Assembly: GCA_965207675.1 (NCBI GenBank)
Contig: CBDBMY010000006.1
Coordinates: 134,983 to 198,982, forward strand
Source: Vicinamibacterales bacterium
Lineage (GTDB): Bacteria; Acidobacteriota; Vicinamibacteria; Vicinamibacterales; UBA8438
Direction of reading: 5' to 3'
Length of the DNA stretch: 64,000 nucleotides
How positions within the stretch are numbered: the first letter of the stretch is position 1; every line of letters begins with the position of its first letter. The position numbers and the translations under genes were made by a program. Under the pieces are notes generated by a model. That model was not told the DNA's origin. It ran no database searches and was given only the letters and a program-made list of their open reading frames with translations. Shown piece by piece: positions 52,176 through 56,555 of this stretch.

Positions 52176-52586
52176 TCAGTCGTCCCGCCCGTCGACCTCC
52201 GCCTGCCGCATCCCCGGCTTCCACGTCGTGTCGAGAAACGGACGGGGGAGGTACGAGCCCCGCAACGGCATCTGCACGTCGGGCAGGCTGTCGGCGTCCA
52301 GCACCTCGTCTTGCCCGATGATCTCGTTGCGGTACAGGAGATACGCGGTCAGGGCGTACACCTCGTCCGGCGTCAGGCAGCAGGGTTCGTAGAGGACGCC
52401 GCCTATCGCCGGCCTCCTTCCGGGAATGAACCCCAGCTTCGCGCGCTGCATCTGCAGGTCGAGCGGCATCATCTGGTTGCTGTAGCTCCAGATCCGTACC
52501 TCAACACCACTCCCGCCGTCGTTCTTCAACGGTGTGATAGAATCCTCACTTCGTTTCGCATGGCACCGTGAGTCACTTCCAACCAA
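52176..52586 (-). pseudogene. C-terminal fragment of a c-type cytochrome (SoxD/sulfite-dehydrogenase-cytochrome-like), lacking the haem-binding CxxCH part
   Basis: LTPDEVYALTAYLLYRNEIIGQDEVLDADSLPDVQMP is a recognisable cytochrome c C-terminal motif. There is no CxxCH anywhere in the ORF. The 5' ~100 nt lies in low-GC island DNA. Confidence 0.45.
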
Positions 52587-52596
52587 AGTGTGTTTT

Positions 52597-53352
52597 ATGA
52601 ATTATGACGGCCTAGAGAAATCGTATTGGGACGCGCAGATTCGCCGTGTAGAAAGCCTAAGGCAGAAGATTGCCACTCGTGCTGAACTGTCCGCGGGCCG
52701 CGCGATTCCAGACGATGAGGACTTGGTTATCGGTTCCGGCAGGAGGCTTCAGGCGACCGTCGTCTTCATTGACATCTCCAATTTCTCCGGTCGTCCATCT
52801 GCAACTCAAGAAGACCAAGAACTAATGCTGCGAATCTTGAATCTGTTTTTCACCGAGATGATTCGCATCATCGAGGACTACGGTGGCGCAGTCGAAAAAA
52901 ATACCGGCGATGGACTGATGGCCTACTTTGAGGACAGGCCGCTCCTCGACCCCGGCAGTAACTCCGTCAAGCGCGCCCTTGCCTGTGCACTGACGATGGA
53001 TGCGACCAATGAGTGGTTGATTGCGCCAGTGCTACGTGCGACCGGTGTGCCTACGCTACAATTTCGAACGACCATGGACTATGGTCCTGTTACGATCGCG
53101 CGAATTGGCCCGCCCCGGCGCTTTAATGCGAACGTAGCGATTGGCAATACAGCGAATTTTGCCTCCAGGATGCTTGGCCTAGTTGGTGCGGGGCAAATCG
53201 CCGTCGGATCAAGCGCGTGCGCGCGCGTTCCAGACGAATGGCGAACGGCGTGGTGCGAGTTGGCGCCCATAAACACAGGTTGGACGTACATAGGTGGATC
53301 GATTCCCTATCCGCTGTATCTCTACAAGGGACGCTGGGCGAGGCTGATATGA
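52597..53352 (+). CDS. Stand-alone class III nucleotidyl cyclase (Pycsar PycC-like)
   Basis: ATG 52597. The metal-binding Asp motifs are TVVFIDISNFSG and KNTGDGLMAYF. The transition-state motif is IGNTANFASRM. There is no sensor domain. The gene lies in a low-GC region. Confidence 0.75.
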   Translation: MNYDGLEKSYWDAQIRRVESLRQKIATRAELSAGRAIPDDEDLVIGSGRRLQATVVFIDISNFSGRPSATQEDQELMLRILNLFFTEMIRIIEDYGGAVEKNTGDGLMAYFEDRPLLDPGSNSVKRALACALTMDATNEWLIAPVLRATGVPTLQFRTTMDYGPVTIARIGPPRRFNANVAIGNTANFASRMLGLVGAGQIAVGSSACARVPDEWRTAWCELAPINTGWTYIGGSIPYPLYLYKGRWARLI

Positions 53353-54011
53353 CGGAAACTACTGCGCAAGCGCAAGGGTGGAGAGGCACCGAGCAGGATG
53401 ATCTACGGGCTGCCACCGGAACCGTACCGGCCGCGTTGCCTACTCCAACCGCCGAACGCCCCGGACGGCCTTCGGAGGAGATGCAGCCTACCACCGCTGG
53501 GAGCGCGAGGGTGCGAACGGATCTTGACGCAAGGGGTGATTTCACGTCGTTCGCACACCGTTACATCAGAGACTATATCAATCTGGCCGACCAGAAGGCG
53601 ACCTTGTTCTTCACGGGTGGCACCGCGTTGCTTGCGTTCATGTACAACAAGAACGTGTCGGAGCGGTGGCTTAAGACCCCAATGCAGTGGAATATCCTCG
53701 ACACTGTTGCGTTCATGGCGATGGCGGCCCTTGCTCTGGGAGCGTTTCTCGCGCTGCTCGTGGTCATTCCTCGCATGCCTGGGTCACGCCGCGGTTTCTT
53801 GTTTTGGGAGGCGGTCGCTGAGTACAAGTCCGGTCGTGACTACTCCGATGAGCTCGGGTTGTTGTCGGGTCCGAGCCTAGTCCAAGCAAAGGCCGAACAC
53901 TGCTACGATCTTGCCGTTGTGTGCCGACAAAAGTACCGGATGTTGCGGCGCGCCTTGTGGACGGGCGCGGTGGGTCTGGCGGGAGCGCTCTTCGTGTTCT
54001 TGTTTCTGTAG
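53349..54011 (+). CDS. Membrane effector candidate (Pycsar PycTM-like): ADxKA motif plus about 3 TM helices
   Basis: Its ATG overlaps the cyclase TGA (ATGA at 53349-53352). YINLADQKATLFFTGGTALLAF is followed by the hydrophobic segments ILDTVAFMAMAALALGAFLALLVVI and ALWTGAVGLAGALFVFLFL. Confidence 0.55.
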   Translation: MTETTAQAQGWRGTEQDDLRAATGTVPAALPTPTAERPGRPSEEMQPTTAGSARVRTDLDARGDFTSFAHRYIRDYINLADQKATLFFTGGTALLAFMYNKNVSERWLKTPMQWNILDTVAFMAMAALALGAFLALLVVIPRMPGSRRGFLFWEAVAEYKSGRDYSDELGLLSGPSLVQAKAEHCYDLAVVCRQKYRMLRRALWTGAVGLAGALFVFLFL

Positions 54012-54090
54012 CGCAAGTACGGCGCGACACGCGGCCCGGGCGGCGGAGAAGGGTCCGACGCGCGTTTACCATGACGCCCCGAGCGTCGCC

Positions 54091-54630: not shown

Positions 54631-54857
54631 ATCTCGGGCTGGCTTTCGGGCTGGCTTGGGGGGGGTCGCAGGGTAGCTCCCTGCGTTGCCCAGCTTCAGC
54701 GGCCGTGGGTGTCGAGCGTTCGGCCACGCATTGGGGGGCCAAGGAATCTGAACTATTCCACCGCCTGAGCCGAATTCCGCACACTTGTCCCGCCGAGGTT
54801 CCGAACGTGTGGCCCCTGCGCTGAAAGGCTCGGTCTTTTCCGAGCCTTTCTCTTTTG
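54631..54857 (+). ncRNA. Candidate ~225-nt structured non-coding transcript, bounded by the promoter above and an intrinsic terminator
   Basis: No plus-strand ORF is present. Local hairpins occur (for example CGCAGGG-TAGCT-CCCTGCG at about 54667-54685). A clean terminator closes the 3' end. I recognise no RNA family. Confidence 0.35.
54823..54857 (+). terminator. Rho-independent terminator (11-bp stem GAAAGGCTCGG/CCGAGCCTTTC, 6-nt loop, TCTTTTG tail)
   Basis: Perfect stem at 54823-54833 / 54840-54850. The T-rich tail occurs only on the plus strand. It lies 17 nt from the stop of the convergent CDS 54874..55632. Confidence 0.7.
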
Positions 54858-54873
54858 TATGTACGAGCGCACG

Positions 54874-55632
54874 TCAGAGCCTTTGGGCATAGGGTTTCCG
54901 GCCCATCACGTGGCCGTCAGGATACACGTTAACGTATCCCGATTTTCGTCGAATCCTCCACTGTTCGGTAGGCGTCGCGACGGTTGGCGCATCTCTGCCG
55001 TCGGCAGAGACGTCCCAGTGAGCGCCGCGTGGTAGCTCGCATCCGGCCACATGTAGCGCATCTCGGCCGTGAAAGGCCGCCGGATTGAGACACCAGGTCA
55101 ACCCCTGGTGGTCCCTCCTCCGATTGCCAGCACCGTGCACCTCGCCGAACCGCCGTCGTTGTTCCGGCGTCCCGAGTTCGGTCTGATGACTCTCGAAAAC
55201 ATGGAATGGAAGACACCGGGGGTCGTGGATGTTCTCACATCCGACAAGGTGGCACCACGTCTCGTACTCATCGAGATACTGCGAAACTTGGGCGGCAACA
55301 TCCGGAAGTGGCGACGCGTATGCCTTGTATCGCACGAACATCTCAACAGCCATGGAGATACGCGCACCACGCATCAACCGCACACGGGGACTTCCGGTAT
55401 GGAACACCCCGACCCTGGTTCGGTGAGATCGCCTGTACAGCTTGACGGCATCTGCACCGGCCATCCACATCAGTGGGCGCCCGTCGATACGCCGCTCAGG
55501 GTTCGGGACCACCTCCTGCAGTCGCCATGAGCGAGCGCGACACTCTCTCCGCAGCGCCTTACGCACCGACGCGATGCGCGTTCGTTCGCTGCGCGGGAAG
55601 ACGATCCAGACTTCGCGATCCGAGAGACTCAA
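54874..55632 (-). CDS. Unknown 252-aa Cys/His-rich protein (second gene of a coupled pair)
   Basis: The TTG start overlaps the upstream TGA (TTGA at 55629-55632). The first in-frame ATG is 54 codons further in. His/Cys-rich segments are WCHLVGCENIHDPRCLPFHVFESH and HVAGCELPRGAHWDV. I recognise no family. Confidence 0.55.
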   Translation of the reverse strand: MSLSDREVWIVFPRSERTRIASVRKALRRECRARSWRLQEVVPNPERRIDGRPLMWMAGADAVKLYRRSHRTRVGVFHTGSPRVRLMRGARISMAVEMFVRYKAYASPLPDVAAQVSQYLDEYETWCHLVGCENIHDPRCLPFHVFESHQTELGTPEQRRRFGEVHGAGNRRRDHQGLTWCLNPAAFHGRDALHVAGCELPRGAHWDVSADGRDAPTVATPTEQWRIRRKSGYVNVYPDGHVMGRKPYAQRL

Positions 55633-56414
55633 GGCTTCGTTCGCAGGAGAACCGATGACGGAATCTGTACGCGCTCCAACTCCTCCGCGTTCATCACCTG
55701 CACACAGGCGATCAGACGTCTGCGCAGTTCTTCACTCCGCCCCGAGCGCGACACCGCTTCGTGGGCGCCCGACCCATCCAGCAAATCCTCTGGAGCCGAA
55801 AGGTCCTGCTCCTCGAACCAAGCCACCAGATGTGCATGGACCTTCTTCTTCAGGTACTCGTTCCAACGATGCCTTACAGGCGCCGCAAGAACGCTCGCGG
55901 GAAGTCGCCGTTCCGTCCACTGCTCGGTCCGGTCGTCCCGTTCGTCATCGCCAAGGGTGTCGGAAAAGGCTCTCTTCCACTCGTTGAAGCTCTCCTCCGT
56001 CAGGGTCGGAAGAGTTGGTCCCGGTTCTGCGGCTTCGCTCGCGCGCCGGGCAACGCGTTCGCCCAGATCCCAGACGTAATTCTCGTTGCCGGAGAAGTCC
56101 AACGTCGCCCACCAGAGATCGGATCGAATTCGCGTCCGTGCGGATATCGATTCGACACCGGGCGGTGGAGCGCCCTCCCTAAAGATCGCGATCGGCGGCG
56201 TTTGGCTCACATCGATATCAAGAATGGCGGAATGCCCCCTTACGAACTCCAGGAACGTCGTCGCTCCGTGGTCCGACTCCCGAAAGGTCCGTTCTGTGAG
56301 ATCGAGCAAGCGATTCTTGAGAACAGCCACACTCATTCTGTACCAATCCGGCCGACCTGTCTCTTTCGCCTTCTCGAAGGCGTGCTGGATCAGTTCGTGT
56401 GGATCTGGCGGCAT
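55629..56414 (-). CDS. Unknown 261-aa protein with an N-terminal OST-HTH/LOTUS-like segment (first gene of a coupled pair)
   Basis: ATG 56414. DWYRMSVAVLKNRLLDLTERTFRESDHGATTFLEFVRGHSAILDI resembles OST-HTH domains. The remainder is acidic and helical with no recognised family. Confidence 0.55.
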   Translation of the reverse strand: MPPDPHELIQHAFEKAKETGRPDWYRMSVAVLKNRLLDLTERTFRESDHGATTFLEFVRGHSAILDIDVSQTPPIAIFREGAPPPGVESISARTRIRSDLWWATLDFSGNENYVWDLGERVARRASEAAEPGPTLPTLTEESFNEWKRAFSDTLGDDERDDRTEQWTERRLPASVLAAPVRHRWNEYLKKKVHAHLVAWFEEQDLSAPEDLLDGSGAHEAVSRSGRSEELRRRLIACVQVMNAEELERVQIPSSVLLRTKP

Positions 56415-56555
56415 GGCGGCTCAAGATCGGAACCTATCGCGTGTAGTATTTCATGCCGCCGCCTTGGTTGGTCGCATCGCTTGCATATACAACAACGCCG
56501 ATGACGGTGGGCAGCCCCGTCATCGGCGAGGCATTGCGCAGCATGCGGTTGACGA

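Follow-up and report, generated by a model that had tools for sequence, protein, structure and literature searches.

A probable composite defence island in a sponge-associated Vicinamibacterales bacterium, with a Pycsar-type operon and a candidate RNA-protein module

The window that we analysed, a 64,000-nucleotide (nt) stretch of a metagenome-assembled genome (MAG) of a sponge-associated Vicinamibacterales bacterium, carries a segment of low guanine-plus-cytosine (G+C) content at 52495-56471, between a DUF1552 gene and an AbgT-family transporter gene. This segment is very probably horizontally acquired DNA: a composite defence island set in a hypervariable slot, in which a Pycsar-type operon and the scar of an IS3 transposase gene accompany a cassette of one structured RNA and two proteins that we propose to be a ribonucleoprotein (RNP) module. 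The reading draws on the foreign composition of the segment, its absence from relatives, its exact breakpoints, its correct assembly, the identities of its modules, the conservation of the RNA structure, the co-occurrence of the three parts of the cassette, and purifying selection on the genes. The island and the Pycsar operon are of known kinds; the RNA and two-protein cassette is undescribed in the profile libraries, RNA libraries and literature that we searched. Throughout, L-numbers label comparison loci and X-numbers label sequencing runs.

Composition, borders and assembly of the island

The island deviates from its host in G+C content, in tetranucleotide usage and, most sharply, in G+C content at third codon positions (GC3), which is 0.61-0.71 in the island genes and 0.95-0.99 in the host genes:

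AbgT (host), GC3 0.97
DUF1552 (host), GC3 0.99
DUF1592 (host), GC3 0.95
pycC (island), GC3 0.61
pycTM (island), GC3 0.71
unkA (island), GC3 0.66
unkB (island), GC3 0.68

Overall G+C content is 60% in the island and 71% outside it. Between 52 and 57 kb, the five 1-kb bins lie at G+C fractions of 0.595-0.641, and all remaining bins of the 64 kb reach at least 0.655, making this the sole dip; the 4.2-kb segment of lowest G+C starts at 52301 (0.603, against a mean of 0.705 and a standard deviation of 0.028). The tetranucleotide distance of 52495-56555 is 0.0418, compared with 0.0142 +/- 0.0028 elsewhere in the window (z = 9.9). A preliminary description of this DNA had proposed a low-GC island at about 52.5-56.5 kb and named these measures as the check, and sliding G+C, GC3 and tetranucleotides all bear it out. 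The dip is real, but the size given for it there (42-57% inside, 63-75% in the flanks) was too large: lines of 60 nt within the island average 60.5% G+C (range 45-72%, with 40% of the lines within 42-57%), those in the flanking genes average 69.6%, and the contrast is about 10 points, not about 20.

Close relatives lack the segment at the syntenic position. No record matched the DUF1552 protein exactly; used as a query for homologues, it led to 80 loci, the closest of which (97-99% amino-acid identity) are Vicinamibacterales MAGs. The AbgT...DUF1552 synteny is kept in 13 relatives with gaps of only 242-1029 bp, compared with 4731 bp in the window, and L129-L131 hold other content at this position together with an intact operon. 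The borders are defined by the following features:

50268..51824, plus strand: AbgT-family transporter gene, conserved left flank (Pfam ABG_transport, E 6.5e-184; 90-95% nucleotide identity in syntenic relatives)
52176..52493, minus strand: cytochrome remnant, the last ~105 codons of a SoxD/SorB-like c-type gene, with signal peptide and CxxCH gone
52495..52596, no strand: left junction DNA, the region upstream of pycC, without cytochrome homology past 52494 and with a short resemblance only to L002 upstream of pycC
56472..56555, no strand: host-lineage spacer downstream of DUF1552, 91% identical to L012 and common to L009 and L011 from 56494, these being relatives that lack the island
56556..57908, minus strand: DUF1552 (HXXSHH) gene, conserved right flank (Pfam PF07586, E 6.6e-95; 97-99% amino-acid identity in Vicinamibacterales MAGs)

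The left border cuts a resident gene. In L129, L130 and L131, DUF1592 and DUF1552 are followed by ~3.5 kb of small genes that vary and then by a Mo-oxidoreductase gene (418 amino acids, aa; Oxidored_molyb and Mo-co_dimer domains). A cytochrome c gene encoding 214 aa overlaps the latter on its downstream side and is convergent with AbgT and DUF5916. These loci supply the comparison that the preliminary description had called for, an intact cytochrome c gene beside DUF1552 and AbgT, and they support an inserted island. The left edge was correctly placed within the open reading frame (ORF) 52176-52586 on the minus strand, and the distal part of that ORF is, as had been claimed, the C-terminus of a c-type cytochrome whose 5' half has been replaced: its alignment to full-length cytochromes is confined to their C-terminal half. 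Its full-length homologues have 212-217 aa and 82-88% amino-acid identity (88% for the 214-aa cytochrome of L129-L131); the 214-aa homologues cover 77% of the ORF, which aligns to residues 126-192 of a 201-aa homologue and matches SoxD in the Protein Data Bank (PDB 2xts_B, E 0.005). The haem motif CxxCH and the N-terminal signal peptide are absent from the ORF, the sequence having DSRCH.

At the nucleotide level, the window from 52109/52118 to 52494 is 86-87% identical to the 3' half of the cytochrome gene in L129-L132. This homology stops exactly at 52494 in four loci, including L132, where the operon lies elsewhere in the genome, and resumes at 56556. Because the match to intact genes ends so exactly, we read the gene as beheaded near codon 109 and reduced to a dead 3' stub, and the first 31 apparent codons of ORF 52176-52586 as read-through into foreign DNA. 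The left breakpoint is accordingly 52494/52495 and not 52530 as first described. The ratio of nonsynonymous to synonymous divergence (dN/dS) of the remnant relative to L129 is 0.16, equal to the value between two intact copies, and the truncation therefore shows no sign of decay yet. This cytochrome subfamily also has an insertion of about 23 residues right after the haem-ligand 'MP' motif (window 52390-52460, ORF residues ~44-66), relative to the SoxD-like cytochrome of L046 and to PDB 2xts_B; it is not pseudogene damage, since the intact 214-aa homologues have it as well.

At the right border, L012, L009 and L011 share 56472/56494-56555 with the window, from which it follows that the foreign DNA ends at 56471. 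L012 joins position 52249 to 56472 and retains the last ~16 codons of the cytochrome gene; we rejected it as a clean empty site for that reason, and its sequence identifies it as a deletion derivative. The two junctions together place the island at 52495-56471. A 10-mer repeated in inverted orientation at the two edges with 9 of 10 matches, noted earlier, is present, and its meaning did not survive: the window contains 3 matches to it where 1.03 are expected, as many are reached in 9 of 100 shuffles, and the left copy lies 85 nt inside the true breakpoint. We rejected it as a boundary signal, its frequency being compatible with chance.

These borders suggest what the site looked like before. 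The earlier arrangement, which persists in some relatives, would have been a sulfite-oxidase-like molybdoenzyme gene together with the gene of its partner, a c-type cytochrome of 214 aa, and the incoming DNA would have replaced the molybdoenzyme gene and the first ~109 cytochrome codons. The lost operon resembles the sulfite dehydrogenases of the SoxCD and SorAB type in that the remnant ORF is homologous to their cytochrome subunit and in that the relatives' subunit gene overlaps an upstream Oxidored_molyb/Mo-co_dimer gene; unlike them, the window keeps only the last ~105 cytochrome codons, with no CxxCH, signal peptide or molybdoenzyme gene.

The assembly of the island is correct. Between 97 and 98% of its sampled words occur in five public runs (three samples, two studies), with parts in sponge and coral metagenomes. 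Both junctions, for which the preliminary description had proposed a read-level check, are spanned by contigs of independent runs: one 4643-nt contig of run X2 corresponds to 51791-56433 with 2 differences, unitigs of X1 tile 51761-56639, and a contig of X7 crosses 56107-56618. The island and the strain-specific flank have equal depth (~20-26 in X1, 8.3 in X2; range 6-26 for the island), and words of AbgT and DUF1552 reach ~100-400. Across 51000-57500 in runs X1, X2, X6 and X7, the word depth of these two core genes is 5-60x that of the island and strain-specific flank; therefore many related Vicinamibacterales strains co-exist in the sponge samples, with the island in a minority only. A chimera of different metagenome organisms might be suspected in a MAG drawn from a community of so many related strains, with flanking core genes so much deeper than the island. 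Its probability is nonetheless close to nil, given that five runs hold the island words, that single contigs cross each junction, and that L002, a separate assembly, has Pycsar and cassette at this locus. We conclude that the island is no chimera and belongs to one strain among many co-living relatives.

One further ORF lies in the interval between AbgT and the cytochrome remnant, in host-lineage DNA outside the island:

51877..52068, plus strand: 63-aa ORF with an 11-aa (33-nt) repeat unit at 52004-52038, with tblastn matches in 13 relatives

It terminates in this unit of 33-35 nt (11 aa), which in relatives forms a tandem array of up to six or seven copies; tandem iteration is seen in L006, L007 and L009. 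In most island-free relatives, homology to the window stops exactly at 52038, the end of the repeat unit. A 107-aa gene of L129 with a weak Apolipoprotein match may be related to this ORF.

The Pycsar-type operon and the IS3 scar

Pycsar systems act by abortive infection: a membrane effector is switched on by a cyclic mononucleotide. The left part of the island consists of a two-gene operon of this type, followed by a transposase fragment and a spacer:

52597..53352, plus strand: pycC, Pycsar-type class III nucleotide cyclase, 251 aa (PADLOC PycC, E 2e-19; Pfam Guanylate_cyc, PF00211, E 4e-8)
53349..54011, plus strand: pycTM, Pycsar effector with three transmembrane segments (3TM), 220 aa (Pfam PF18967, E 4e-13; PADLOC PycTM, E 1.2e-22)
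54055..54219, plus strand: IS3-family transposase scar, ~50 codons of the HTH_21 region (Pfam HTH_21, E 1.2e-7; NCBIfam transpos_IS3, E 3.8e-6)
54220..54593, no strand: unassigned spacer, 66% G+C, unique to this genome

The cyclase matches 13 PADLOC PycC models, scores above the curated cut-off of Pfam PF00211, and matches PDB entries 1wc0 (E 3e-11) and 7r65, a PycC (E 3e-5). Aligned to the 1wc0 cyclase, it keeps the metal-binding Asp motifs FIDISNF and GDGLMA and the Asn/Arg motif IGNTANFASRM. The start of pycTM overlaps the stop of pycC in the ATGA at 53349-53352, and dN/dS values relative to L002 of 0.08 (pycC) and 0.10 (pycTM) indicate strong purifying selection. With the cyclase profile, the catalytic residues and the adjacent effector all in place, the pair reads as an intact Pycsar-type operon, and PADLOC and Pfam agree with the cyclase/effector pair that had been described here. 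Like known Pycsar operons it has two genes, for a stand-alone cyclase of class III type and, after it, a 3TM effector of PF18967, with intact catalytic motifs; unlike them, its host is a sponge-associated acidobacterium and its effector has an N-terminal extension of ~60 aa. By analogy with the family, pycC would make a cyclic mononucleotide upon phage infection, which would activate the 3TM effector, and the cell would be killed or arrested. The operon would add Pycsar-type signalling to the sponge-symbiont Acidobacteriota.

The transposase stub seen earlier is confirmed by Pfam HTH_21 and by NCBIfam, where it matches model positions 124-169 of 369 in transpos_IS3. No rve (DDE)-like frame and no inverted repeats of an IS3 element were found, and 54000-54640 yielded no further coding frames, whether related to insertion sequences (IS) or otherwise recognisable. 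The scar would mark an old transposition or recombination event. In the spacer that follows it, Pfam found nothing in any frame, and blastn found no counterpart in any locus or elsewhere in the window.

A structured RNA and two proteins

The right part of the island is the cassette, a 1.9-kb unit (54594-56471) in which a structured RNA on the plus strand converges on the two-gene operon unkB-unkA on the minus strand. It recurs in ~50 unrelated loci, and its homology with L002, L025 and L081 extends from a point 3-4 nt before the -35 box as far as the DUF1552 spacer. The preliminary description had listed an orphan transcription unit with promoter and terminator and, separately, an unknown two-gene operon; both are present, as parts of one conserved three-part cassette and not as separate items.

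54597..54624, plus strand: sigma-70-type promoter of the non-coding RNA (ncRNA), with TTGACA, 16 nt, TATGAT and an extended -10 TG (11 of 12 matches)
54624..54862, plus strand: structured ncRNA of ~235 nt, inferred start near 54631, intrinsic terminator at 54823-54850
54874..55632, minus strand: unkA, 252 aa, putative effector or enzyme, no assigned family
55629..56414, minus strand: unkB, 261 aa, predicted N-terminal LOTUS/OST-HTH winged-helix domain, its stop overlapping the unkA start by 4 nt
56415..56471, minus strand: region upstream of unkB, right end of the cassette, with its border set at 56471/56472 by the L012 junction

The promoter is the only promoter-like site in 5.5 kb, and most other loci also have boxes resembling -35 and -10 elements, at a constant spacing from the RNA downstream of them. 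The window RNA scores 241 and 192 bits against covariance models. Such models, built from 7 copies and then from 20, found the RNA in 36 of 40 distant metagenome loci (unkA identity 30-48%), in L081-L085 and L087, and in the actinobacterial MAG L088, in every case immediately 3' of unkA and on the opposite strand.

Covariation carries the case for structure. Across 35 distinct sequences, 90.3% of cells hold standard pairs, 61 of 68 pairs have compensatory changes, and the covariation score is 0.58, numbers that are somewhat inflated by an alignment fitted to the covariance model. Sliding the partners by 1-3 columns leaves 37-51% pairing and a score of at most 0.15, and 0 of 500 shuffles reach 0.58. 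An independent run of MAFFT and RNAalifold on 7 sequences already gave 14 compensatory pairs. Folding of single sequences does not discriminate (z of -1.9 on the plus strand and -2.2 on the minus strand), and covariation alone is informative. Rfam 15 has no family match for the window RNA or for six divergent copies, with sub-threshold matches to the terminator or 3' part only. On these comparative grounds we regard the RNA as a new structured RNA family, with very strong support from covariation.

An ORF of 154 aa on the minus strand at 54320-54784, antisense to the ncRNA and overlapping it, is probably spurious, because the RNA covaries and the alignment has indels that are not multiples of three. 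In L119 a partial tRNA-like match (1414-1486, 26.8 bits) lies at the contig end, ~140 nt past the cassette RNA. A stretch of the unkB leader (window 56415-56435), CGATCTTGAGC, is similar to CGATCTCGGGC at the 5' end of the ncRNA (54627-54640); we dropped this resemblance as a functional feature, as it occurs in the window copy only and is not conserved in other loci.

The unkA protein has no match in Pfam, NCBIfam, PHROGs or PADLOC. Its family comprises 347 clusters at 50% identity, all of ~250-300 aa and single-domain, and no relatives were found on 2.9 million viral contigs. The AlphaFold2 model is confident (predicted local distance difference test, pLDDT, 90.2; predicted template-modelling score, pTM, 0.84), and no analogue of the fold was found in PDB or BFVD (best E 0.037, template-modelling score, TM, 0.26). 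Flavodoxin-, TrmD- and resolvase-like assignments were rejected, the Foldseek matches being weak and partial (TM at most 0.28), as was a serine recombinase, whose motifs are absent from the alignment. Invariant residues of the family include H70, R71, K103, D137, R139, H188, H205 and D207, a set of His, Asp, Arg and Lys that is reminiscent of the active site of an enzyme.

The unkB protein has at least 161 homologues. Its N-terminal ~75 residues match by Foldseek the LOTUS domain of TDRD7, 2lh9 (probability 0.98, TMt 0.59), and 8wxs (TMt 0.70). Pfam OST-HTH (PF12872) is weakly matched by 32 of 43 family members (best E 1.8e-5), the window protein itself falling below threshold. The structural model thus gives the N-terminus a LOTUS/OST-HTH fold, predicted to be an RNA-binding module. 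The remaining ~185 residues match nothing; a ZorC match (NCBIfam, E 0.069) was judged noise, and one to Sp-CxC (Pfam, E 0.027) is weak and far below the cut-off. Profile searches of PDB with both protein families found nothing.

The two genes are adjacent in every locus examined and evolve with dN/dS of 0.24-0.39. The pair is also found in a cultured actinomycete, Nocardia takedensis (GCA_053601975.1; L133 / L134), as proteins of 292 and 291 aa with an hhalign probability of 100% for unkA. The RNA model gives only a 9.5-bit match in the Nocardia locus, downstream of unkA and on the same strand as the genes, so that no clear RNA is seen there.

History of the slot and possible function of the cassette

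The DUF1552-AbgT slot is a recombination hotspot with many independent outcomes, not a single clean insertion site. Its contents are:

empty: 13 relatives
weak AbiEii-like genes: L129, L130
cassette alone: L025, L081
Pycsar and cassette: L002, window

The weak AbiEii genes are two matches to the nucleotidyltransferase toxin (E 3.6e-5 and 4.6e-4) among small unknown genes beside DUF1552 (L129 4830-6340, L130 2083-4604). A PIN / PSK_trans_fac toxin-antitoxin pair lies just past DUF5916 in L081 (11750-12390) and L129 (12848-13488). The slot resembles described defence hotspots, for example in Pseudomonas aeruginosa (PMC10250203), in being a variable site between conserved core genes with different defence or toxin-antitoxin cargo in each strain. 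It differs from them in having no mobility genes and in that one border cuts a resident operon, for which reason the event must have been partly a replacement or deletion and not a clean insertion.

The modules of the island appear to have separate histories. Relative to L002, the window has a synonymous divergence (dS) of 0.34-0.38 in the cassette genes, 0.58-0.63 in the Pycsar genes and 0.10 in DUF1552; the comparison with core genes is biased by their extreme GC3 and codon usage. Pycsar and cassette have similar GC3 yet differ nearly two-fold in dS, which argues for separate histories; the island would be composed of three modules, namely the Pycsar operon, the IS3 scar and the cassette. 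The composite history that had been suspected from the IS3 stub gains from this difference and from the cassette standing alone in L025 and L081. In L002, a second, direct copy of an internal piece of DUF1552, 200-310 nt long and with ~88% identity to the intact gene, lies between PycTM and the ncRNA promoter (12931-13244). The window has the IS3 scar at this place, and the duplicate is suggestive of earlier recombination by way of DUF1552 homology.

Four lineages (window, L002, L025 and L081) carry the cassette at the identical site, with divergence ordered roughly as that of the flanks. It is possible that the low-GC stretch is ancestral DNA lost by most relatives, with no insertion at all, and both this distribution and the resemblance of L012 to a deletion derivative would fit. 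We consider that improbable. GC3 of the island genes shows no adjustment to host composition, relatives hold an intact operon at the island position while the window's cytochrome gene is truncated at the island edge, and the cassette and the cytochrome gene each occur in unrelated genomic contexts as well. For the cassette itself, either one arrival with repeated loss or passage among related strains by recombination through conserved flanks would give the observed pattern. As for how the island was acquired, our conjecture is that recombination through the conserved flanks among co-resident strains is the likeliest route, because there is no integrase, tRNA or terminal repeat.

Several points weigh against an acquired defence island. 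No terminal inverted repeats or target-site duplication were found at the island edges, no tRNA gene in the window, and no integrase among the island ORFs; flanking direct repeats are likewise missing, and the 50-codon IS3 fragment is all that recalls a mobile element. The cassette could have been resident for long and been lost repeatedly, in which case it would be no recent arrival. No PADLOC model matches either cassette protein, some cassette neighbours are housekeeping genes (trp genes in L098 and L101, a tricorn-like protease in L082), and we found no RNA-seq run holding the sequence. The messenger of pycC could be cUMP or cCMP, or else cGMP, which a Pycsar-related branch with the same 3TM effector type makes rather than cUMP or cCMP (preprint 10.64898/2026.08.12.744502). 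A degraded prophage or integrative element would account for the foreign composition, the IS3 fragment and the small genes of unknown function. It is most unlikely in view of the lack of PHROGs matches, of any unkA relative among the 2.9 million viral contigs, and of integrase, att-like repeats and tRNA. Acquired, composite defence DNA remains our explanation for the segment as a whole.

The G+C content of the cassette is 4-11 points below that of the flanks in 8 of 9 contexts and equal to it in L085, and its neighbours include:

Pycsar: window, L002
GmrSD: L083
PIN, HicB and restriction endonuclease (REase): L084
HEPN_LA2681 and resolvases: L085
PIN toxin-antitoxin pairs: L087
GajA-like ATPase and Prok-E2/E1 genes: L092
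Shedu nuclease domain, HigB-like Gp49/HTH pair, IS3 fragments and ImmA-like peptidase: Nocardia takedensis

The association with defence that these neighbourhoods convey is suggestive and not statistical, because several others are housekeeping. We regard the cassette, from its gene content and neighbours, as a candidate RNA-containing defence or toxin-antitoxin module. The RNA would be made constitutively and would form a ribonucleoprotein with unkB and unkA, held by the LOTUS domain of unkB. The RNA-unkB complex would keep unkA inactive, and infection or loss of the RNA would release it; by analogy, the logic would be that of an RNA-antitoxin or abortive-infection system. It is tempting to speculate, and we do so tentatively, that the cassette represents an unrecognised class of RNA-dependent immune or toxin-antitoxin systems, in which RNA, LOTUS protein and new-fold effector act as an RNP switch that has spread laterally across the Acidobacteriota and reached the Actinomycetota.

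Alternatively, the cassette may be a housekeeping or regulatory RNP, for instance an RNA-processing, repair or modification enzyme with a guide or scaffold RNA, that is laterally mobile by chance. Some known bacterial RNPs are encoded beside their protein partners, as Ro60 is with Y RNA and OLE with the Oap proteins, and a housekeeping role would suit both the plain metabolism of some neighbourhoods (trp genes, proteases) and the silence of PADLOC. This is a serious rival, if a somewhat unlikely one: it sits less easily with a patchy distribution in which most close relatives lack the cassette, with G+C below that of the host in 8 of 9 contexts, and with repeated adjacency to toxin-antitoxin and defence genes.

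Among known systems, the proposed defence or toxin-antitoxin module comes close to several and belongs to none. Type III toxin-antitoxin systems (ToxIN, CptIN, TenpIN) are likewise small, laterally mobile modules in defence contexts, and share the proposed logic of an RNA encoded beside the effector that it keeps inactive. Their RNA, however, consists of tandem repeats upstream of the endoribonuclease toxin and is transcribed together with it, whereas that of the cassette is a single-copy, multi-helix RNA of 235 nt on the opposite strand with its own promoter and terminator, and the cassette has two proteins, neither of which matches ToxN or Abi models. Retrons and the defence-associated reverse transcriptases (DRTs) DRT2 and DRT9 also have a conserved structured ncRNA as obligatory partner of defence-island proteins; unlike in those systems, no reverse transcriptase or polymerase-like domain was found in unkA or unkB. 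The LOTUS-domain protein SzsA of P. aeruginosa is reported to protect against RNA phages (preprint 10.64898/2026.04.06.716636). Compared by description and not by sequence, it shares the LOTUS winged-helix fold with the N-terminal ~75 residues of unkB; it is described as a single gene, and unkB has ~185 further residues that match nothing.

In summary, the island looks like a textbook defence hotspot overwriting a metabolic operon, an event that probably cost this strain a sulfite-dehydrogenase-like enzyme. Its main value lies in the cassette, which joins what appears to be a new structured RNA family to an obligatory LOTUS partner and to a confidently modelled protein without structural relative, the latter from a family of hundreds of sequence clusters. 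RNA components are known in few defence systems, namely CRISPR, retrons, DRTs and type III toxin-antitoxin systems, and if the proposed role is true, a further, unrelated RNA-protein architecture would widen that list. The cassette would also give bacterial LOTUS domains a testable function, and since the cultured Nocardia takedensis carries the protein pair, experiments are feasible.

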